A DNA stretch of 64,000 bases from a virus: IMG/VR virus record IMGVR_UViG_3300035670_000027; one strand, 5' to 3'. A program made the position numbers and the translations under genes. Every line of letters starts with the position of its first letter. The first letter of the stretch is position 1. The notes below the pieces were generated by a model. It made no database searches, was not told where the DNA came from, and saw only the letters and a program-made list of their open reading frames with translations. Shown one piece after another: positions 6,221-48,288 of this stretch.

Positions 6221-8005
6221 TCAGCCTTCACATGCCAAGCAAGTATCACCCTCCACAATTGCTTTCATGTCGAGTTCTTTGATGACTTCCCTCTCAATAC
6301 GCTTCGCCACTTTATCTGCCTTACCAATCTTTTCAGAACGGCAATAGTAAAGTGTCTTAAGACCATTTTTCCAAGCCATGAAATGAATGGCATGAAGATA
6401 CTTGATATTAACATCTGGTCTGAAGAATAGATTTAGCGATTGTGCTTGATCGACAAACTGTTGACGATCTGCGGCATGTTGAACAATCCATCGTTGATCA
6501 ATCTCCATAGAAGTTTTGAATACATCTTTAGTCCAATCATCCATCCACTCTAGATGTTGTACTGAACCATCGTTTGCAATAATGCTTGACCATGTTTCTT
6601 CGTACCAACCCTCTTTGTGATTCTCTGCTTCTTTGCGAATGATTGCATCAAGATACTTATTCTTATTCAATGATGAACCTGATAAGGTATCTTGTCGATA
6701 AGCGTTTGCACGAAATGGTTCAATGCTAGGACTGGTATTGCCCATAATAATACTGCTAGAGGCATTGGGTGCAATAGCCACCATGTGAGAAAAGCGCCTA
6801 CCGGTGCCCATTGTATCAGGTGCTTCACCTCTTTCAGTACCAAGTTGTAGATTTGCATCTTCTAATCCTTTTTGAATGTGCTTGAAGATTTTCAAGTTCG
6901 TACCTGTTGCTTGGGCAGATTCCCAAGGAATATTTTTCTGCTGAAGATACGCATGAAAACCTAATGCACCAATGCCAATAGAACGCTCTTGCTTTGCAGA
7001 GTAAATCGCTCTTGAAATAGTTTTTGGTGCGTTATCAATAAAGTATTGTAACACATTATCTAGCATCTCTGCAACATCTTTAAGGAACAATTTATTCTTT
7101 GACCATTGATCATAGTACTCAAGATTCAATGACGATAGGCAACATACCGCAGTACGCTTCTTATCGGTAGGCAGAATAATCTCTGAACACAAGTTCGATT
7201 GCCTAATTGAAAGCCCTTTGTCTTTCTGAAACTGTGGCATCAAACGATTGCTTGTATCGATGAAATGAATGTATGGTTCACCAGTGATCATGCGAGTTTC
7301 AAGAATGCGTTGCCACAATTCTCTCGCAGAGATAACTTCACGAACCTCACCGCTATGTGGGTCTTTAAGTTCCCATGAATCATCTGCATGTGCATCAAGC
7401 ATACACTTTTCAATCAATTGCATGAAGTCATCTGTAATATTGATGCCGTGATGCAAATTGAGTGTACGCATATTTGGATCGCCAGTTGGCTTTCGCATCT
7501 CTAAAAACATAAGTATATCAGGATGGGAAATATCCAAGTAAGTAGCATAACTGCCTCTACGAGTTCGACCTTGCCTGTAAGCAAGAGAAGAAGCATCATA
7601 AGTGCGTAGGTGAGGCATAACACCAACACTTTTGTCATCAGCACTACGAATACCAAGACCAATTCCAACACCTCCTCCCAACATCGATAGCCAGTTAACT
7701 TCGGATAGTGTATCGACCAGTCCCTCTGCGCTATCATCTAGGTAGGGAAGAAAACAACTTATAGGAAGACCACGCTTAGAACGACCAAAGGACAAGATAG
7801 GAGTAGAATAAGAAAGCCAATGTCTACTACTATAGTCATAAAGTCTTTGTGCGTGTTCGGCATTTGATCCGAACGCTTTTGAAACATATGCAAACCTTTC
7901 TTGTGGAGAGTTTTCTTCCTCTCTCATGTAACTCTCTTTTAATCTTTTGATTCCCAACTCATCAAATAGTTCATCTCTACTATAATCGACTATAATTTCA
8001 GACAT
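6221..8005 (-). CDS. nrdA: ribonucleotide reductase class Ia alpha subunit (short, no ATP cone)
   Basis: SNLCSE, VCCLSS, IAPNASSS, KTLYY, C-terminal CLAC. Confidence 0.95.
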   Translation of the reverse strand: MSEIIVDYSRDELFDELGIKRLKESYMREEENSPQERFAYVSKAFGSNAEHAQRLYDYSSRHWLSYSTPILSFGRSKRGLPISCFLPYLDDSAEGLVDTLSEVNWLSMLGGGVGIGLGIRSADDKSVGVMPHLRTYDASSLAYRQGRTRRGSYATYLDISHPDILMFLEMRKPTGDPNMRTLNLHHGINITDDFMQLIEKCMLDAHADDSWELKDPHSGEVREVISARELWQRILETRMITGEPYIHFIDTSNRLMPQFQKDKGLSIRQSNLCSEIILPTDKKRTAVCCLSSLNLEYYDQWSKNKLFLKDVAEMLDNVLQYFIDNAPKTISRAIYSAKQERSIGIGALGFHAYLQQKNIPWESAQATGTNLKIFKHIQKGLEDANLQLGTERGEAPDTMGTGRRFSHMVAIAPNASSSIIMGNTSPSIEPFRANAYRQDTLSGSSLNKNKYLDAIIRKEAENHKEGWYEETWSSIIANDGSVQHLEWMDDWTKDVFKTSMEIDQRWIVQHAADRQQFVDQAQSLNLFFRPDVNIKYLHAIHFMAWKNGLKTLYYCRSEKIGKADKVAKRIEREVIKELDMKAIVEGDTCLACEG

Positions 8006-38602: not shown

Positions 38603-39781
38603 TTAGAACGGAATTTCTTCTTCGTTTTTCACTTCGGCAGTTTCTACCGGAGCGGCGGTAGGATCGATACCAGCATCAATCTTGGTGTAGAGATCAAGGA
38701 AAGAAGTCTTGGTCTCGCCATCGAATCGATTGATACAGTACTGAATCGCATCCATTTTATCACCAAAGATTGTATATGCTTCGGCAATGTGGACAAGACG
38801 GCGAGTAGAAATCAATTCGTCAATCGCACCTTCTTCGAAAGTCTTACGAATGATATCAGCCCACTTCACAAGATTTGTGGCAAACTCTTCATCTTGAATG
38901 CTAAGACTGGCGAACACTTTCTTGAGAATCTTGGTCTCAATAGAAGTGGAAGGATATTCTTGCTCGACTGTAATCGGGAATCGCTCAAGGAAGGCATCAT
39001 CAAGAATCGTAGCCGCCATGTAACGACCAGTCTCATCACCTTTACCCTTGGTGTTAGCGGTAGCGATAATGTTGAAACCATCAACGGGATCGACAAACTC
39101 ACCAGTCTTCTTAATCAGAATACCTTTGCCTTCAAGGATACCTTGCAGACACATAAGTTTGTTAGAGCCACGATCAATCTCATCAAGCACAAGGACAGAG
39201 CCACGCTTCATTGCTTGGATAACAGGACCGTCAAACCATTTGGTCTCACCATCAATCAAACGGAAGCCACCAACAAGATCATCCTCATCGGTCTCAGGTG
39301 AAATGTTCACACGGAGAAACTCTCGCTTGGTTTGGGCACAGGCTTGTTCGACCATGAAAGTCTTGCCGTTACCAGACAGACCAGAAACGAATACAGGATA
39401 GAACCGCTTGCTATTCACAATGGCTTTCATCTTGTCAAAGAAACCAAACGCAACATATAGAGGATTCACTTTAGGAATCACGGCGCCTTCTTCGACACGA
39501 CCAACAGTAGAAATTTTTGCAACAGGTTTTTGAACAACCGGTGCGGGAGTTTGTTTAGGCATCTCAACAACATTCGATCCAAGGTTGAGGTCGATACCGA
39601 ATTCTGCGAGGGGCAATTCATACTTGCCACGACCAACTCGGTATTTATCGTTTTCAATCCAGAAGTGGCGACTGAACCCTTCGCTAGAAAGGTCAACCAA
39701 TTGCTGGCGGGTCACTACATTACCATAACGCTTTGCGGCTTCGGTCAAGAAGGCAACTTTTTCGGTCTGGCTAATCATCAC
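38603..39781 (-). CDS. MoxR/CobS-like AAA+ ATPase
   Basis: GLSGNGKT, LVLDEID, TANTKG, AFLERF, ISTRR. Confidence 0.9.
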   Translation of the reverse strand: MMISQTEKVAFLTEAAKRYGNVVTRQQLVDLSSEGFSRHFWIENDKYRVGRGKYELPLAEFGIDLNLGSNVVEMPKQTPAPVVQKPVAKISTVGRVEEGAVIPKVNPLYVAFGFFDKMKAIVNSKRFYPVFVSGLSGNGKTFMVEQACAQTKREFLRVNISPETDEDDLVGGFRLIDGETKWFDGPVIQAMKRGSVLVLDEIDRGSNKLMCLQGILEGKGILIKKTGEFVDPVDGFNIIATANTKGKGDETGRYMAATILDDAFLERFPITVEQEYPSTSIETKILKKVFASLSIQDEEFATNLVKWADIIRKTFEEGAIDELISTRRLVHIAEAYTIFGDKMDAIQYCINRFDGETKTSFLDLYTKIDAGIDPTAAPVETAEVKNEEEIPF

Positions 39782-39813
39782 AAATTTCCTTTCATCATCA
39801 AGTCAATAAACAT

Positions 39814-39842
39814 AGTATACCAAAGAAGTGGTGGTATGTCAA
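39814..39842 (-). promoter_or_regulatory. sigma70-like early promoter
   Basis: TTGACA-17-TATACT with extended TG. Confidence 0.85.
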
Positions 39843-42034
39843 GCGATTTCTTCAATTACTTTGGACAGTAGCACTCGGTTGGTCAAGCGGTTCTGATTCA
39901 TCTTAAGAAACGCACCCCTAAGTTTGCGAGTACTCACTTCTTTGTTGTCATCTCCCAACAAGTCATTCAAGTCTTCATCTTCAACATTCAATTCTTTGCC
40001 ACCAGGAATCAGAAAATACTGATTGTATCCATAGTTAGGAATCGAATAGAATTTTTCACTCTTGAAAGATTTGTAATCACTATCAGGAACAAACATACCA
40101 AAGCGGCGCATTGCATCAAAGAAGTAACGCTTGGTCGCTGGCAGAATGTAAAAGCCAATCAGATTACAACCGGTGCGGTCTTTAAGAATCTGCAACAGTA
40201 CAGGCGTCACACCATTGTCACCGATACGGTACCGCTTTTGTGTTTGCTTATCTTGAATATAAGAAACAGAGTACCGAGTAGGAGCCGCAATGCGAATCGA
40301 ACTGTAATAGTCTTCACCTTTGGTGTAGAGAGAACTGCTATCATCACCGTCAGTCAAAAAGACAACATCAACAATTTCTGCTTTGTGCGATTTGCGAAAA
40401 CGATTCACGATACCGCTTGCGGCATAGATTGTTGCATTCAGCGGAGTACCACCAAGACCCATGTTAGGATTTATGGCACTATTCCGCTTGTAGTAATCAA
40501 GAATAAACTCACCATAATTCAACATGTCATTCGCCATACGGCGATACTCTTGATTCTTCATGCGGCTGGAAAAGAGATTCAACAAAACAAATTGCTCACC
40601 GAAAGTAATGTCACCAGTCTTTTCGCTGAAAGGAGTAACACGCTTGCGGAAACCATTTTCATCTATTTGAATATCACGCTTAACATATTCAGTAGAGAAT
40701 GCATACACTTCAAAAGGAACATTCACTTTGCGGCAGAAGGTTGTGAGAGTAATCAACTGCTCAATGGTGCCTTGCATGTTATCAGTCATAGAACCAGACC
40801 AGTCAAGGAACATCACAATGCCGTGATTCTTACCAGCGGCTACTGAACCGACCTTGCGGAAGATATTGTCATTGAATTTGTATGTGTGAAGTTTGTTGGT
40901 ATCGATAACACCAGTATCAGACACAACCACACGGCGCAACTCAGCCGCTTTCTTACGCATCTCAAATTCTTTGACAAGATACGAAACTGAATTCTTTGTT
41001 TTCTTTTCGAATTCAATCAGCATATCGTTTTTGTAATCTTCATGCTTTTCAAGAAACACTTGACCAACAAGGTCTTTGAAAGGCACAATTAATTTTGCGT
41101 AATTTACGCATTCATCACAACCAGACAAAGGACCATTGTGAATCTCTTTTTGCTCTGCCATGTTGCGTAGAGCATTTTCAAGATTCTCATCGGTAGAAGA
41201 TTTCACTTCATCATATTCTTTCAATTCTTCTGGTTGATGATCTTCGAATTGTGGCTCTTGACTACGATAGCCACGACCTTCGGTGCTATCATCAAAATCA
41301 TCTTCATCAGAATCAACCATGTCTGGATTCAGACTTTCGGCTTCATCTTGAAATGGATCATCGAAATCATCCATGTCATCCATGTCCATCTCATCATCAA
41401 ATTCGCCAGCGGCAAGTTTCTCTTTGAATTCTTGCATGGCTTCTTCACGCTTTTTTTCTAATTCTTCTTTACAGTAGGCATACAATTCTTTGCACACGGC
41501 AACAACATCATCAAAGGTTTCGCATGAGGAAACTTTTTTGACAAGGGCTTGCTCTTCAGGTGTGAAGTCTACAGTAAAGAAAGGACCGATCTTAAAGTAA
41601 AGATTGATTCGGTCAATGAGTAACATGCGATTTACATCCTTGTTTTTCACTTGGAAGAAATCACGATTCATAAATTCTTTGTAACCAACATTGAATGATT
41701 TTTTGAGACCAGGATAGCGGTCTTTGATGCGCCGTTCAATACGGGCATCTTCAACAACATTCAGGAATGTTTTGAACCCCTTAGGCATATCTGCTTGAAC
41801 AGAACCGTAGTCTGTCGGAGTATCAATCGCATGACCGACTTCGTGACCAATGAACAGGTCTTCCATATCGGTAGTCATATCGTTAAGTAGGGGAAGAACC
41901 AGAGTCCGTGTCGCAACATTGAATGATGCCGTATCAGTCTTGCGGTATTCAACATTGATATTTTCGGTGGCTAAGAGTTTAGCCAGATTAGATTTGGTAA
42001 TTTGCGTGGTTTGCATCATTGCCCTTTCGATCAC
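39839..42034 (-). CDS. HEXXH metallopeptidase-like + VWA (CobT-like) protein
   Basis: HEVGH, NVVEDARIE, acidic linker, DWSGSM MIDAS, GGTPL, LTDG. Confidence 0.85.
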   Translation of the reverse strand: MIERAMMQTTQITKSNLAKLLATENINVEYRKTDTASFNVATRTLVLPLLNDMTTDMEDLFIGHEVGHAIDTPTDYGSVQADMPKGFKTFLNVVEDARIERRIKDRYPGLKKSFNVGYKEFMNRDFFQVKNKDVNRMLLIDRINLYFKIGPFFTVDFTPEEQALVKKVSSCETFDDVVAVCKELYAYCKEELEKKREEAMQEFKEKLAAGEFDDEMDMDDMDDFDDPFQDEAESLNPDMVDSDEDDFDDSTEGRGYRSQEPQFEDHQPEELKEYDEVKSSTDENLENALRNMAEQKEIHNGPLSGCDECVNYAKLIVPFKDLVGQVFLEKHEDYKNDMLIEFEKKTKNSVSYLVKEFEMRKKAAELRRVVVSDTGVIDTNKLHTYKFNDNIFRKVGSVAAGKNHGIVMFLDWSGSMTDNMQGTIEQLITLTTFCRKVNVPFEVYAFSTEYVKRDIQIDENGFRKRVTPFSEKTGDITFGEQFVLLNLFSSRMKNQEYRRMANDMLNYGEFILDYYKRNSAINPNMGLGGTPLNATIYAASGIVNRFRKSHKAEIVDVVFLTDGDDSSSLYTKGEDYYSSIRIAAPTRYSVSYIQDKQTQKRYRIGDNGVTPVLLQILKDRTGCNLIGFYILPATKRYFFDAMRRFGMFVPDSDYKSFKSEKFYSIPNYGYNQYFLIPGGKELNVEDEDLNDLLGDDNKEVSTRKLRGAFLKMNQNRLTNRVLLSKVIEEIA

Positions 42035-42860: not shown

Positions 42861-43499
42861 CTAATTAAGATCAACTTCAACTTTGATGTTTCCCGATACC
42901 GAAATACGATAATCATCGGAAGTAAAAAATGGATATACGCAATGGGCTAATGACGATGGAAACAGTACTCCTGAATTTTCAAAGTTTTTATCGGCTGGAA
43001 TTTTATGCGGTTGAAGTCTGCCCAAAGAATTAGTAAGCATAAATTCAAAATGACCGGGACAATTGTTGTTAGATTCTTTAGATGCTGGTCTTGCCATTTC
43101 ATCTTTTATATCATAAGGATTTTGTATCCATATAACAAAAGAAAAAAGTCCTGAGTGAAGATGATATGGATTGAATTCGTGTTTTTTTTGAAAATTAACC
43201 CATAAAGAATCTAAAATTAAAGGACAGTTTTTAGTTAAAATATTAATTGTTTTTAAATAGTTAAATTGTTCATCGAATTTTATGGCGATTGGAAGAATAA
43301 GATTTTGTGCATAATTTTTAGATTCAACTAATTTAAATTGTTTTTCAATATTTCCTGCCAACTGAGAATTATATTGAATTCCATTAAAATTTTTTTTTTG
43401 AATTTTATTTATTTCATTTTTAATAGGAAGAAGTTCTTCTTCAGTAAAAGAAATATAACTATATCCAATATTTGGAAAATAAATTTGTTCTATGTTCAT
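42861..43499 (-). CDS. 2OG-Fe(II) oxygenase (AT-rich)
   Basis: WVNFQ..EFNPYHLH, FPS.L.HCVYPF, RISVSGN. Confidence 0.8.
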   Translation of the reverse strand: MNIEQIYFPNIGYSYISFTEEELLPIKNEINKIQKKNFNGIQYNSQLAGNIEKQFKLVESKNYAQNLILPIAIKFDEQFNYLKTINILTKNCPLILDSLWVNFQKKHEFNPYHLHSGLFSFVIWIQNPYDIKDEMARPASKESNNNCPGHFEFMLTNSLGRLQPHKIPADKNFENSGVLFPSSLAHCVYPFFTSDDYRISVSGNIKVEVDLN

Positions 43500-45061
43500 G
43501 GTTTATAAAAAACAAAAATAGGTTCGTACTTGAGCCACATGCCATTGACCTTACAGAAATTCTTTGCCTTTGGTAGACCTGTATCAGGATCAATGCGATT
43601 ACCGCCAGGCATTTGTGCGAGTGACATTTTCAAAACGCCTTTGTACTTCATACCTAACTCTTCAAGAATTTTTCTACTGTCTTCTTCAAGTGGTAGAATG
43701 TCTGCACCAAACTTCGCATCAGCGATGTTCCACAATAGATAACGATCATTGCGTAACCATTCAACGGCAGTCTCCAGCGTTGGGCGTAAGAAACCCTCAC
43801 GCCATGCATCATAGCCTGTGAATTTTTTATAAGATTGTGTAGGGTCTTCACTATAAGCCTCCTTCGCAAAGTAAGGGGGTGAAGTAAACACCATGTCTAG
43901 TAAACCTTTGTACTCCTGAAAGTTCCTGTCTTCTCTAATGACTTCAGAACCCAATTGATATATGTCGAAAGTATGGGCGCTTTCAAACAAAACTCCAGAG
44001 TTCTTTGAGGCATTATAGAAATTAGCCAGATCGGCATACTTAGTAGAAGAAACGCCACCAGTCCCATTAATAGTATGGTCGGTGTTAGGATCAGTACCGA
44101 CATAATGAAGAGGAAGAGAAGTCCGAGTAGACATAGCACCGAGAATGCGACCACCCCAACCACTAGAGGGATCGTAAACCACAATTCTATCTTGTCCTGT
44201 AATGTGCTTAGTGAATTTTTCATATAAGAATTTTGCAGTTAATGGAGGAAAGTTTACGGCATACTGACACCACGAAACACGAAATGCTTTTAGTCCCAAA
44301 GGAAAAAGTTTCTGTCCGTATTTATAGTAACGAATGCGATACTTCGATTGCTTTGCTTGAATGTTCTTTGTTGTAGTCTCTGCACACTTGCTGAGATCAG
44401 ATATCTCAAGATACTTGGCACTCTTTAGTTCTTCATTGTAGCCAGTGTATTCGTCTTCTTCATCTCTTGATTCGATCCAGTAGTCATATCCATACTCACG
44501 CAGGTTGTTTGATTCGAACCACTCAACAAACTCATCTCCAGTTTTAAACTTCCGCTTGTGGGATCCAATCTGCACAACTTCACCGACTTTGATTGTACTA
44601 GAGTAGTGATAAAACGAATCACGCTTGTAATGTCTTCTTGCATATTTAAGTGTCTTTTCTAAAAGGTCATCACGAACAAAATGGTCATAGATTGAAAGCC
44701 CGTCATCGTTCTTGGTATAGTTGATGCGAGTTTTCATCATAGTAGGAAACCATTGATTAGCGGCATTGCCTACTACGCTTGTGTTACGAATTACATCTTT
44801 CTCGCCTGTGAGTTCATCAATTTGTTCAAACTCATGTACAGGAAAGCCATACATCTCTCTAAACTGTTTTCGAATATCGTCTTCATCCCAACCGACTCTT
44901 GGAGGTTGACCAAGTTCATCCCACGCATACACAACCGCTTTGCGTAGATCAATAAACCATTGTCTGAATTCATCATCATTCATCCATTGAATTTGTTCAA
45001 ATGTCTTGTTCGTTTCGTGATTGAGTAACCAATCATTGCGTTCATAAAAATGTTTTGTCAT
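43496..45061 (-). CDS. SAM-dependent amino-methyltransferase-like DNA modification enzyme
   Basis: YDPSSGWGGR (motif I), GTDPN, FTSPPYF (motif IV), EPIFVF. Confidence 0.75.
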   Translation of the reverse strand: MTKHFYERNDWLLNHETNKTFEQIQWMNDDEFRQWFIDLRKAVVYAWDELGQPPRVGWDEDDIRKQFREMYGFPVHEFEQIDELTGEKDVIRNTSVVGNAANQWFPTMMKTRINYTKNDDGLSIYDHFVRDDLLEKTLKYARRHYKRDSFYHYSSTIKVGEVVQIGSHKRKFKTGDEFVEWFESNNLREYGYDYWIESRDEEDEYTGYNEELKSAKYLEISDLSKCAETTTKNIQAKQSKYRIRYYKYGQKLFPLGLKAFRVSWCQYAVNFPPLTAKFLYEKFTKHITGQDRIVVYDPSSGWGGRILGAMSTRTSLPLHYVGTDPNTDHTINGTGGVSSTKYADLANFYNASKNSGVLFESAHTFDIYQLGSEVIREDRNFQEYKGLLDMVFTSPPYFAKEAYSEDPTQSYKKFTGYDAWREGFLRPTLETAVEWLRNDRYLLWNIADAKFGADILPLEEDSRKILEELGMKYKGVLKMSLAQMPGGNRIDPDTGLPKAKNFCKVNGMWLKYEPIFVFYKP

Positions 45062-45708
45062 GTTAATTTACACCTAAATAAAATACTATGCCTATAAACA
45101 TAAGGAATTAAAGGGGCTCTTGCTTTGTGTAAAATGTTTCCATCAAAGTATAATACTCTTCCAGGAACATATTCAATTAATTTTGAATCAGTCGCATTTT
45201 CATTTTCTAAATACTCAAATTCTCCGCCCCATTCTTTCTCCCAATAAGAGGTAGTGTATATCATTACACTTTTTATATTTCCATCACGATGATAACTTCC
45301 TTCCATTGACATAACTTGCATGTTTGTGTGAATACTGATCAATTCAAAATTTTTTTTAATGACATTATTAGCAATGTGGGTAAATGCTTCCATAAAAATT
45401 ATTGGACATTTACTTTCGTAAATATATTTACCTTTTTTTTCAAAAATGACATTCCCTAAAATGTTGTGTGTGCCTTGAGTTCCATACGGAAAAGTTTTTC
45501 TGTTTGCTATATTATTTGGAAAATTAGGAATTTTTTCCGCCTCTTCATTTAACTCTAAAATATATTTTCTATCGAAAACATTATCAAAAATTTCTAAAGA
45601 ATAATTTTTCATAATATTAATGTCTTTAAAACTCCGTATGTGATACCTACTATCGTTATACCTATTATCAATGCCGACATGAGCAATATTCCAAGTATTG
45701 TCATCCAA
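45058..45708 (-). CDS. 2OG-Fe(II) oxygenase (AT-rich; true start may be MKNYS near 45610)
   Basis: YHRD, WEKEWGGE, PGRVLYFDG.I.H, R. Confidence 0.75.
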   Translation of the reverse strand: MDDNTWNIAHVGIDNRYNDSRYHIRSFKDINIMKNYSLEIFDNVFDRKYILELNEEAEKIPNFPNNIANRKTFPYGTQGTHNILGNVIFEKKGKYIYESKCPIIFMEAFTHIANNVIKKNFELISIHTNMQVMSMEGSYHRDGNIKSVMIYTTSYWEKEWGGEFEYLENENATDSKLIEYVPGRVLYFDGNILHKARAPLIPYVYRHSILFRCKLT

Positions 45709-45726
45709 GAAATGTAGAGTAAAAGT

Positions 45727-46161
45727 TTAGTCAATCTTTCTAACATCTACGCCACACTTATTTAGGAATTCTATACCACTATTGTCACGATAGTCTTCGC
45801 CATAGAAAACTTTTTTGATACCAGATTGATAGATCATTTTAGCACACTCTATGCATGGACTGCAAGTAATAAACACACTTGCACCATCACCGCTTTCAGA
45901 TGACTTGGCAAGTTTAGCAATGGCATTTGATTCTGCGTGGAGAACTTCTGGTTTGGTGATTAGTGCTTTACCACCATAATTATCGTATATGGCATCTTCA
46001 CATGTATTATCCCAACCTGCTGGCATACCATTGTACCCAATAGAGATGATGCGATCATCTTTGACAATGACCGCACCAACTTTCTTTCTGACTGCACTAC
46101 TATGCTCGGCAAATAATCTAGCAGTTTTCATGTAAGTGCCGAGGTATTTTTCTTTAATCAT
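45727..46161 (-). CDS. cd: dCMP deaminase
   Basis: VGAVIV, GYNG, HAE, SPCIEC. Confidence 0.9.
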   Translation of the reverse strand: MIKEKYLGTYMKTARLFAEHSSAVRKKVGAVIVKDDRIISIGYNGMPAGWDNTCEDAIYDNYGGKALITKPEVLHAESNAIAKLAKSSESGDGASVFITCSPCIECAKMIYQSGIKKVFYGEDYRDNSGIEFLNKCGVDVRKID

Positions 46162-46402
46162 CCCAACCTTCTGTTTGTAAAAACCTTTTCTCTTGGATTG
46201 TCTTTTCTTTAAAAGTCTTTCTAGGATTTGAACACATGATACATTTAGGATCACCGCAGTTTAACGCATGATGTTTTACATATCGATGCGGCTCTTCGAT
46301 TGGTACACCAGCCGCCTTTGCAATTTTCATTTGCTTACGAATTGCATGTTCATCACCAAGAATTCTCTTACCACGCTTTTCTTTATCGATCTCATTGCTC
46401 AT
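46154..46402 (-). CDS. small basic Cys-cluster protein
   Basis: CGDPKCIMCSNPR; AGGAG RBS. Confidence 0.6.
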   Translation of the reverse strand: MSNEIDKEKRGKRILGDEHAIRKQMKIAKAAGVPIEEPHRYVKHHALNCGDPKCIMCSNPRKTFKEKTIQEKRFLQTEGWDD

Positions 46403-46430
46403 TTTATTCTCCTTTAGTTAAGCAATTAAC

Positions 46431-47192
46431 TTAAGCGACATTCCAGATTAAGGCTCCTTTCTTTCCATTTGCTTTGACAAATTCCCATAACTTCGCATCA
46501 TAATATTTTTCGCTAGGATATGGGGGCGCATACTGCTCTTCAATTGCTTGATCGTATTTGTATGGTGACCGCATTGTCTTTGCACGACCTTTCTCATAGT
46601 CACTCATCTTGTGACCAATCTCAACTGCAAACGCAGGCACATCAGGAAATGCTAATTGCAATCCACGATTGAGTGTGCCGCTTGATGCGACTGTCCAAAT
46701 CTCTGTTGGTTTTACTTTGAGGGATCGTGCTACTTTGATGATAGAACCTAAGACTGTTGGGTGTTCAAGACCAAGTGGCAATACTCTACGATTGACTGTA
46801 TCTTCTTCGTAGTAGTTTCTTGCTTTTGCTTTTGTTACATTCAACATGCCATTCGCTACCCAATGAATTGTTCCACCCATGTCTAAGACTTTTTGTTGAT
46901 GCCAGGTTGGCTCTTTACGCTTAGCCATGAAAAATGTTGCTCTCTTTCCGTATTTATTACAAACATATGTCAAAGAGATAGGTCCCCAACCAACTTTATT
47001 TGCACCACCAAAGACCCACTCATCACCTTCTGTGCTTATCAGATAGTCAATGAATCTTGCTTTACTGCCATAGCCGAGTTTGTCATCACGAACAACACGA
47101 AAACCTTCGTACTCTTCTATGACTGGTGGTGGATAAGGGTCTTCCCATCCTTTAATTGTATCAAGATATTCTTCAGGAGACAAGAGATTCAT
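46431..47192 (-). CDS. fold-type II PLP-dependent enzyme (ACC deaminase/D-Cys desulfhydrase-like)
   Basis: VVRDD...GSKAR (Schiff-base Lys), VASSGT phosphate loop, YDAK, IWNV; GGAGG RBS. Confidence 0.8.
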   Translation of the reverse strand: MNLLSPEEYLDTIKGWEDPYPPPVIEEYEGFRVVRDDKLGYGSKARFIDYLISTEGDEWVFGGANKVGWGPISLTYVCNKYGKRATFFMAKRKEPTWHQQKVLDMGGTIHWVANGMLNVTKAKARNYYEEDTVNRRVLPLGLEHPTVLGSIIKVARSLKVKPTEIWTVASSGTLNRGLQLAFPDVPAFAVEIGHKMSDYEKGRAKTMRSPYKYDQAIEEQYAPPYPSEKYYDAKLWEFVKANGKKGALIWNVA

Positions 47193-48288
47193 GCAAGTTT
47201 TCCTCCACTCGTACATCAATTACCAAATGTATGCGTTCTTCATTACCACCATTGATTGCTTGGTGTGCCTTTCGTGTATCAAGAAACCATACATCACCTT
47301 CTCTCATATGCACTTTCTCAGGTTCGCCTTTTGTGTCCCATACTGTAAAGATCACATCAGGATTTGTTTTGATAGGCAAATGAATTCGTGCTAACTTACC
47401 CAATGCACCGCCAGAATCAGGATCAACTTGATCGGTGTGTCTTTCAAGTTCACCACCACCTGGCTTCAATCGCATGAATCGCACACGATGAATTTGATTG
47501 CCAAGTGTGCTACAGTATTGTTTGATTTCAGGAAACAATTTGTACAATGATGTGTCTTGCAATTCAAAGAGTGTATCGCTATTGTCTTCTTGCCACTTCT
47601 TACTCATCTCAATTGGCTTCGTGATGAATGATGGGTCTTCAGTATAACCTCTGAGTGACAATGCTGACCACGATTTGTCTTTGTTGTAATTGCTATAGTG
47701 ATTTGTAAACTCAGGCAATATCTCAAGTTTCTCACGAATAGATTTAATCAGATTCATGCTTACAGTACCAATCTGCTTGATGCTTAGATACTCAGCATGG
47801 TCTACTTTAGGAAACTGTCGTGGTGAACCTCTGTAATAGATTGCATAAATTTCACCATAGGTTGTAATCTTAGGACCAACATAACAGAACCCGCACTCTT
47901 CTGCTAATTTGCAATGATCATCATTTTCTGCCCACACATACAACCAAACATCTCTCTTAGGTGCAAGCCCCTCAAACTTTGTCATTGGCTCTAAGCATTT
48001 TTTGAGCGTATTCAAATTTCCTGATAACTTGCCTACAGTCATATCACCTTTTTCTTTTCTTGCGATAACTGTGTCGCCATGCATGGTGATGTTTGAACCT
48101 GCTTTCGATTCAATTACTTCTAGTCTTGCATCATCAAGAAGAATCAATGTTTCTTTGTGCAATGCTTCTGCAATGTTGTTCTTCTTAAATTGTGCGAATG
48201 GTGATAGTGTGTATGCATTATAGTCTGAATACTTTGCTTCAATCTCTTTGAGATAGTCTAACTCATATCCATGTTGCCAGTCTTTCAT
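47173..48288 (-). CDS. fusion of a GNAT-like N-domain and an Asp/Asn beta-hydroxylase-type 2OG-Fe(II) oxygenase
   Basis: WLYVWAEN...LAEECGF (GNAT motif B-like); RVRFMRL.PG..HTD, IHLP, AHQAIN, RIHLVID. Confidence 0.7.
   Translation of the reverse strand: MKDWQHGYELDYLKEIEAKYSDYNAYTLSPFAQFKKNNIAEALHKETLILLDDARLEVIESKAGSNITMHGDTVIARKEKGDMTVGKLSGNLNTLKKCLEPMTKFEGLAPKRDVWLYVWAENDDHCKLAEECGFCYVGPKITTYGEIYAIYYRGSPRQFPKVDHAEYLSIKQIGTVSMNLIKSIREKLEILPEFTNHYSNYNKDKSWSALSLRGYTEDPSFITKPIEMSKKWQEDNSDTLFELQDTSLYKLFPEIKQYCSTLGNQIHRVRFMRLKPGGGELERHTDQVDPDSGGALGKLARIHLPIKTNPDVIFTVWDTKGEPEKVHMREGDVWFLDTRKAHQAINGGNEERIHLVIDVRVEENLHESLVS

Follow-up and report, generated by a model that had tools for sequence, protein, structure and literature searches.

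What could a phage do with a methyltransferase-like protein, a pyridoxal 5'-phosphate (PLP) enzyme and a protein that joins a GNAT-fold domain to an oxygenase, all encoded within a few kilobases? This question is raised by a stretch of 64,000 nucleotides of the IMG/VR virus record IMGVR_UViG_3300035670_000027 (hereafter, the window), and this 64-kb window is the part of the genome that the analysis covers. The window belongs to an uncultured T4-like myovirus and has a G+C content of about 38%. Downstream of gp47 (51078-52154 bp) and gp46 (49369-51081 bp), it contains genes encoding a 371-aa fusion of a GNAT-fold domain and an AspH-type 2-oxoglutarate (2OG)-Fe(II) oxygenase (47173-48288 bp), a 253-aa fold-II PLP enzyme (46431-47192 bp) and a 521-aa methyltransferase-like enzyme (43496-45061 bp). 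These genes and the others of the region described below are all located on the minus strand. A first-pass annotation had read them as a candidate DNA hypermodification pathway distinct from the known thymidine routes, which start from 5-hydroxymethyl-2'-deoxyuridine (5-hmdU). The genes that it named were all found on the minus strand downstream of gp46. Its view of a single unit separate from the 5-hmdU route was upheld, and its inclusion of a deoxycytidine monophosphate (dCMP) deaminase and extra oxygenases as members was not. With modest confidence, we lean to the reading that this module of three genes and five domains would modify a base of the phage DNA by adding to its exocyclic amino group a side chain bigger than methyl.

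Sequence comparison places the PLP enzyme in a family of DNA-acting decarboxylases that includes gp52 of Pseudomonas phage M6 and gp226 of phage ViI, and its own activity is predicted from this kinship. The protein matched phrog_7093 (E 7.8e-27, profile positions 15-278 of 279), the same PHROG to which M6 gp52 was assigned (E 2e-159); the label of this PHROG, 'threonine dehydratase', comes from the GenBank annotation of M6 gp52. Comparison of the PLP-family alignment with M6 gp52 using hhalign gave a probability of 98.3% (E 2.2e-14, 219 columns), and the match takes in the lysine described below and a C-terminal signature, PFP..YD.KAW..FWN. In addition, M6 gp52 matched the PLP gene of the window in a tblastn search. 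The motifs VVRDD..G(S/T)K.R and SSGT are invariant or almost so among the homologues, so that the RDD..GSK.R motif, from which a fold-II PLP enzyme had been proposed earlier, is real and conserved. The lysine of G-S/T-K-x-R, the putative Schiff-base lysine (codon 47061-47063 bp), is invariant in 15 diverse members of the family. It aligns with K36 of M6 gp52 (FSKIRG) and with Lys41 of rat serine dehydratase, while SSGT aligns with the GGGG loop of the latter enzyme. Pure M6 gp52 and ViI gp226 are PLP-dependent decarboxylases of thymine-linked amino acids within the DNA polymer, and purified M6 gp52 decarboxylates C-alpha-glycinylthymidine in DNA (PMC8989533). These two proteins are the only characterised members of the family. 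The kinship raises the odds of a module that works on DNA and of a stage at which a base bears an alpha-amino acid, and it makes the earlier idea of a PLP-dependent decarboxylation of a base-linked amino acid plausible.

Searches of the PDB with single sequences gave no match for the PLP protein or the methyltransferase-like protein. A PDB search with a profile of close PLP homologues returned nothing useful, and a broader PLP profile gave a weak match to serine dehydratase (E 0.054).

Do the three proteins belong together? A pattern scan of IMG/VR for relatives of the PLP enzyme yielded 387 viral contigs, and synteny was read in the 80 closest loci, in which the identity of the PLP protein ranged from 52% to 93%. 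Of the 71 T4-like loci with room for the GNAT-oxygenase gene, 67 have it immediately upstream of the PLP gene, and the methyltransferase gene was found downstream in 50 of 51. The spacing between the PLP and methyltransferase genes varied from 0 to 2616 nt, and the intervening genes differed between loci. These counts, together with the fused forms found elsewhere, agree with the co-occurrence that the first-pass annotation had named as a check of its proposal. Note that all of the 80 closest loci represent one T4-like lineage with a common gp47-gp46 synteny. Such synteny is weak evidence by itself because all loci come from one lineage, and gene fusion is the stronger evidence. A prediction of a complex between the methyltransferase core, the GNAT-oxygenase and the PLP enzyme (score 0.01, mark 0.32) weighs neither way.

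Fusions were found repeatedly. In triple fusions of 1057-1191 aa, one of which is an nr entry of Nitrosomonas nitrosa, the methyltransferase, GNAT-like, AspH and PLP parts are collinear, and an AspH-PLP fusion is represented by the metagenomic protein P0062. Another group is made up of ParB-methyltransferase-PLP proteins with a length of about 800 aa. In these, the PLP domain interrupts the methyltransferase after motif II and ahead of motifs III/IV, and the methyltransferase is clearly of the same subfamily as the window protein (DFVFSCPPYGDLEVYSDDP vs DMVFTSPPYFAKEAYSEDP). A query for this group gave 555 IMG/VR viral contigs, and gene neighbourhoods were examined in 80 siphovirus-like loci out of these. 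There, the gene adjoins terminase and portal genes, and the search for further conserved enzymes near it in the 80 loci revealed only terminase, portal and small unknown open reading frames (ORFs). The partner domains in 20 fused PLP representatives were N6_N4_Mtase (11), YunG (6), DUF3102 (2) and ParB_N (1). The ParB-methyltransferase-PLP group is represented in cultured phages by ORF1 of Erythrobacter phage vB_EliS_R6L (KY006853) and by its relative ZS04 (PV416405), while in the Microcystis phage Mae-JY30 (PP438422) and in Acidovorax sp. Leaf78 the methyltransferase and the PLP enzyme are encoded by adjacent, overlapping genes. Thus, three cultured phages (R6L, ZS04 and Mae-JY30) have the methyltransferase-PLP pair. 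The PLP family as a whole comprises 1504 cluster representatives at 50% identity, and only 13 loci, mainly in metagenome bins, were found among cellular genomes of 185,579 species; the family is large and phage-specific.

Synteny, repeated fusions and the PLP domain within a methyltransferase all agree with the earlier proposal of a single unit, and we conclude with high confidence that the methyltransferase-like, PLP and GNAT-oxygenase proteins form one functional unit. The alternative, that these are unrelated auxiliary genes whose linkage reflects nothing more than common descent in a single phage lineage, accords with the shared gp47-gp46 synteny of the 80 closest loci. It is contradicted by the fusions, which show several domain orders and come from bacteria as well as from phages of unrelated types, and by the retention of the PLP-methyltransferase pair while the intervening genes change; we regard it as very improbable.

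Some members of the family have further architectures. The metagenomic protein P0136 (1129 aa) is a ParB-methyltransferase-PLP protein with an intein (Hint and LAGLIDADG) toward its C-terminal part. YunG (PF24585, sub-threshold) is fused to the PLP domain in P0132, P0161, P0164, P0182, P0188 and P0231, and in P0132 it is placed between the AspH and PLP parts. In L003, a more distant T4-like contig, ORFs of 139 and 365 aa lie between the oxygenase and PLP genes and an opposite-strand gene resembling GIY-YIG homing endonucleases parts the PLP gene from the methyltransferase gene (6480-8004 and 8787-9383 bp of that contig).

In the window, the oxygenase gene ends with a stop codon at 47173-47175 bp, and its final codons contain the start region of the PLP gene, with an overlap of 20 nt. 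A GGAGGA Shine-Dalgarno sequence (47201-47206 bp) is located 8 bases from an ATG (47190-47192 bp), and the interval 47173-47206 bp was read from the sequence as a putative site of translational coupling between the two genes. The ORF is open up to a TTG at 47219 (262 aa), and ATG 47192 is most likely the start.

The methyltransferase-like enzyme consists of a family-specific N-terminal domain (aa 1-250; 44312-45061 bp), these 250 residues being specific to its clade, and a class I core that binds S-adenosylmethionine (SAM) (43499-44311 bp). The core contains motif I DPxxGWGGR, motif II GTDPN and motif IV TSPPY. Across 23 homologues FTSPPY and the upstream motif I, DPSSGWGGR (44147-44173 bp), are invariant; in the 23 sequences, which include triple fusions, the invariant residues are D297-P-x-x-G-W-G-G-R305, D324-P325 and T393-S-P-P-Y397 (motif IV, 43871-43885 bp). 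The large SPPY-type SAM enzyme of the first-pass annotation is thus present, with its SAM-binding motifs and the (S/D/N)PPY motif that serves in amine activation; its motif I, acidic motif II and motif IV are those of class I SAM methyltransferases of exocyclic amines (N6-A, N4-C or N2-G). The Pfam family PF01555 (N6_N4_Mtase) matched with 21.5 bits, under its cut-off of 26.7, and only over profile positions 2-83; in the 521-aa enzyme, motif I precedes motif IV, unlike in the beta-class model. The structural model (predicted local distance difference test, pLDDT, 86) has the class I fold, and a Foldseek search with it returned generic class I methyltransferases only; the matches from the fold searches were taken up by the catalytic domain. 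Fold matches of the model include 8zhv, a class I fold aminocarboxypropyl transferase, which indicates that the class I fold is capable of aminocarboxypropyl transfer.

For the 371-aa fusion protein, the match to PF05118 (54.7 bits against a cut-off of 22.6; E 1.3e-14) and an iron triad, H284-x-D286...H354, that is invariant among 18 homologues confirmed the AspH assignment made earlier. In the AlphaFold model (pLDDT 91), the oxygenase domain (aa 163-363; 47200-47802 bp) was most similar to a proline cis-4-hydroxylase (4p7x, Z 15.5), followed by a beta-hydroxylase of nucleoside antibiotics (7v4p, Z 15.2) and human AspH (8re5, Z 14.6), and it has the double-stranded beta-helix fold. Judging from these nearest structures, the oxygenase domain of the model is of the type that acts on amino-acid side chains by hydroxylation. 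The N-terminal domain (aa 9-156; 47821-48264 bp) was compared using VIA-align and resembled the GNAT protein 2pc1 (Z 11.6, root mean square deviation 3.5, 139 residues aligned), with further matches to 2fia (Z 10.5), 9mto (Z 10.0) and SbzI (Z 9.9). A Pfam scan of the fusion gave no match to a GNAT family. The label 'GNAT-like' therefore held at the level of the fold (2pc1, Z 11.6), and it did not extend to the acetyl-CoA loop, which is not conserved.

A number of these results weigh against a hypermodification of the kind favoured here. For the GNAT-fold domain, the acetyl-CoA loop Q/RxxGxG/A (approximately residues 86-93) varies freely across the 18 homologues, and hhalign comparison with the acetyltransferase gp48 of phage PaMx11 gave a probability of 1.8%, that is, no detectable kinship; acetyl-CoA binding by this domain may not occur. 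The PLP protein of the window had no match to Pfam PALP (PF00291) at E<=0.01; its relatives from Mae-JY30 (46.3 bits) and R6L (40.6 bits) pass the cut-off of 35. Three loci (L050-L052) lack the GNAT-AspH gene, and in two others (L004 and L063) the PLP gene stands alone. A 339-aa protein without a Pfam or PHROG match is encoded between the PLP and methyltransferase genes of L050-L052 (L052:8212-9231) and may be an alternative tailoring enzyme. Moreover, the motifs of the methyltransferase-like enzyme are those of ordinary amino-methyltransferases, and its nearest folds are two N2-methylguanosine (m2G) tRNA methyltransferases, Trm11 (Z 15.9) and TrmN (Z 15.3). Finally, the closest relatives of the core among cultured phages, in 23 records of Bacteroides, Mammaliicoccus/Staphylococcus and Vibrio phages, are not paired with a PLP enzyme, as the PLP family matches only 3 other records; these relatives may be plain methylators.

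The last points bear on the possibility that the enzyme performs plain N6-adenine or N4-cytosine methylation of DNA, while the PLP and GNAT-oxygenase proteins act on a conjugate made by another enzyme or otherwise aid the methylase; a methyl mark and a separate modification would then be expected. Because the relatives of the core in the 23 cultured records lack a PLP partner, this is a serious rival; the canonical motifs accord with it, and the R6L protein was read by its authors as a CcrM-like methylase (PMC5463345). It was nevertheless judged unlikely. No other conserved transferase was found near the pair in the T4-like or siphovirus-like loci, and the transferase and kinase of the thymidine route were not detected by tblastn. 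Repeated fusion, together with the insertion of a PLP domain into the methylase, is also hard to square with unrelated substrates.

The fold matches raise a different possibility, namely that the module acts on RNA (tRNA or rRNA) or on protein. In its favour, the best folds are those of the tRNA m2G enzymes, with PrmC and METTL5 close behind Trm11 and TrmN. AspH-type enzymes mostly hydroxylate proteins or free amino acids, and the wybutosine pathway follows the same logic on tRNA (PMC2938197). In addition, the fusion protein P0156 (1051 aa) contains an RNA 2'-O-methyltransferase domain resembling vaccinia VP39 (PF01358, E 3e-13) next to the N6_N4-type methyltransferase and the PLP domain; this odd architecture might indicate RNA as a substrate, or a second round of alkylation. 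However, the Z-scores of the RNA enzymes only slightly exceed those of generic class I methyltransferases, and the Pfam matches are to DNA methylase families. ParB_N and DUF3102 fusions and the terminase neighbourhood also argue for DNA, no tRNA genes were found in the window, and the only characterised enzyme type of the PLP family works on DNA (PMC8989533). We consider an RNA or protein target improbable. The module is thus placed in a DNA context by its ParB fusions and by terminase and portal neighbours in the siphovirus-like contigs, as well as by gp46 and gp47 in the window, and its substrate is probably DNA.

Which side chain might be attached? The minimal fused forms contain a SAM enzyme and a decarboxylase homologue as their sole catalytic parts, which makes SAM the simplest origin for an alpha-amino acid. 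PLP enzymes require a free alpha-amino group, and the three accessory domains are all of classes that act on amino-acid moieties. On these grounds we tentatively suggest that the side chain derives from the amino-acid part of SAM. In the first step, the methyltransferase-like enzyme would flip the base and alkylate its exocyclic nitrogen with the 3-amino-3-carboxypropyl group of SAM. In the second step, the PLP enzyme would strip the carboxylate, leaving a cationic aminopropyl arm. The order could also be the reverse, with SAM decarboxylated first by the PLP enzyme and the aminopropyl group then transferred as in spermidine synthases. In the T4-like phages, a third step would follow, with the AspH-type domain hydroxylating the arm and the GNAT-fold domain binding or acylating it. 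Taken as a whole, this scheme, from the transfer of an aminocarboxypropyl or aminopropyl group through a gp52-type decarboxylation to hydroxylation or acylation in T4-like phages, is put forward as the leading, though tentative, proposal. As regards the base, SPPY is the form of motif IV that usually marks N4-cytosine enzymes, and N4 of cytosine is for this reason named as the target, as a weak first guess.

Two other routes were considered. A cysteine synthase-like beta-replacement, by which the base would gain an alanyl group, is less likely given the decarboxylase homology, and a route to ethylene resembling that of 1-aminocyclopropane-1-carboxylate (ACC) synthase and ACC oxidase had no support beyond the enzyme classes.

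The involvement of SAM also allows for a reading without any hypermodified base, in which the PLP domain acts on the cofactor, either destroying SAM as an anti-restriction measure or removing S-adenosylhomocysteine (SAH) for faster methylation. SAM and SAH are alpha-amino acids carried on a nucleoside and so resemble the substrates of the gp52 family, and the PLP domain is physically linked to a SAM-binding domain. Nevertheless, destruction of SAM would starve the fused methyltransferase, and the conserved hydroxylase and GNAT-fold domains in the same polypeptide would be left unexplained; we hold action on the cofactor to be quite improbable.

How does the module favoured here, with a larger side chain on an exocyclic amine, compare with known systems? 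To our knowledge, complex phage DNA modifications are located at C5 of pyrimidines or C7 of deazaguanine. The Mom protein of phage Mu, which has a GNAT fold, makes N6-carbamoylmethyl-adenine; as proposed for the module, the hypermodification is on an exocyclic amino group, in the case of Mom that of a purine. As far as we know, Mom is a single protein without a methyltransferase, PLP or oxygenase partner.

The thymidine pathways of phages M6, ViI and PaMx11 (PMC5889632, PMC8989533) share with the module the post-replicative tailoring of a base-linked amino acid. The gp52 decarboxylase of the M6 pathway is homologous to the PLP enzyme of the window, and these pathways also involve a GNAT-fold protein, other tailoring enzymes and fusions of member genes. 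However, they start at 5-hmdU and depend on both a 5-hmdU DNA kinase and an amino-acid:DNA transferase (aGPT-Pplase), which were not found here. Searches using tblastn with M6 gp51, gp53, gp54 and gp58 and PaMx11 gp46-49 and gp51, which cover the roles of the aGPT-Pplase transferase, 5-hmdU kinase, radical SAM isomerase and hydroxymethylase, revealed none of these genes in the window at E<=0.1. The same queries gave no match at E<=1e-3 in 175 related loci, at the sensitivity of a pairwise search. This result bears out, for the window, the earlier statement that a hydroxymethylase, an hmU kinase and an amino acid:DNA transferase are missing, and with it the separation of the module from the 5-hmdU route; ThyX, which the same annotation had reported, was found at 8166-8861 bp (PF02511, E 7e-43). 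In contrast to the thymidine pathways, an amino-methyltransferase-like SAM enzyme is the invariable partner here. Its presence suggests that the modified atom is an exocyclic nitrogen (of A, C or G) and not the methyl group of thymine. An AspH-type oxygenase is present in the module and is absent from the known thymidine pathways.

Three further systems are similar in part. CmoX of the Synechococcus phage S-B43 has a methyltransferase fold and provides a non-methyl group as a handle for hypermodification, but in the published account (PMC12783734) it is a C5-cytosine enzyme that uses carboxy-SAM and is described without a PLP enzyme or an AspH-type oxygenase, whereas the module enzyme has SPPY. 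In wybutosine synthesis (PMC2938197), TYW2, which has a class I methyltransferase fold, transfers the amino-acid part of SAM (aminocarboxypropyl) to a base and the 2OG-Fe oxygenase TYW5 hydroxylates the resulting side chain; the comparison concerns logic only, as the substrate is tRNA, TYW5 is of the JmjC and not the AspH type and a PLP step is absent. The ParB-fused orphan phage methyltransferases, such as R6L ORF1 (PMC5463345), belong to the same subfamily and are encoded beside packaging genes. Ordinary ParB-methyltransferases have no PLP domain, whereas R6L ORF1, published as a 'DNA modification methylase', holds an inserted one that was overlooked in the published annotation (PMC5463345). 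A gene resembling those of 3'-phosphoadenosine 5'-phosphosulfate (PAPS) reductases is located close to ORF1 in the R6L genome. Full-text literature searches gave no DNA modification system combining a methyltransferase with a PLP enzyme and no aminocarboxypropyl-DNA in phages.

The remaining genes of the region appear to lie outside the module. Comparison with 50,697 phage records using megablast and blastn gave a single match to the region, a 93-nt stretch of the dCMP deaminase gene, so that no close cultured relative was found among these records, and the closest gp46 from a cultured phage was that of the Methylophilales phage Melnitz (49.6% aa identity). Between the PLP and methyltransferase genes, a variable insert (45058-46402 bp), which does not form part of the conserved module, contains an 82-aa ORF (46154-46402 bp), the dCMP deaminase gene (45727-46254 bp; PF00383, E 3e-23) and a 216-aa ORF resembling 2OG-Fe oxygenases (45058-45708 bp; weak PF13640 match). 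Both the 82-aa ORF and the dCMP deaminase gene count as variable inserts. The 216-aa gene is missing from all 80 related loci and is for this reason regarded as a recent addition in this phage. After the methyltransferase gene, a gene for a 212-aa 2OG-Fe(II) oxygenase (42861-43499 bp; PF13759) overlaps its stop codon by 4 nt and was present in few related loci only. Thus, the methyltransferase-like gene has genes of the 2OG-Fe(II) oxygenase type on both sides, each with a 4-nt overlap. The earlier assignment to the pathway of the dCMP deaminase and of the 2OG oxygenases encoded next to the module was not supported, as they are not conserved across the related loci.

Upstream of the module, genes of a peptide deformylase (48285-48797 bp; PF01327, E 6e-35) and another 2OG-Fe(II) oxygenase (48794-49372 bp) were found. 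The deformylase gene lies directly upstream of the module in most related loci, yet no fusion links it to the module, and it is not part of the conserved set. On the other side, positions 38603-42034 of the window encode a 731-aa protein (phrog_459 'peptidase', with a weak CobT-like match) and a 392-aa ATPase of the AAA_5/CbbQ type. The gene of the 731-aa protein is a conserved downstream neighbour of the methyltransferase gene in most related loci; the two proteins are probably a CobT/CobS-like pair with no relation to the module.

If the proposed chemistry is true, the module would represent a new entry route to DNA hypermodification, in which an amino side chain is set on an exocyclic nitrogen by a methyltransferase-type enzyme. 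It would be the first case of a methyltransferase-fold enzyme transferring the amino-acid part of SAM to an exocyclic amine of a DNA base, and the transfer of aminocarboxypropyl or aminopropyl groups from SAM would be extended from RNA, proteins and polyamines to DNA. The system would also be widespread, with hundreds of IMG/VR viral contigs, about 1500 clusters at 50% identity and three cultured phages. The question is testable, as these three phages have the methyltransferase-PLP pair. Such marks bear on restriction and other host defences, as well as on how phage DNA from the environment can be sequenced and cloned; the enzymes could be of use for setting amine handles at defined DNA sites. 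Since the family is large and phage-specific, many phage genes annotated as 'DNA methylase' may conceal a different chemistry.

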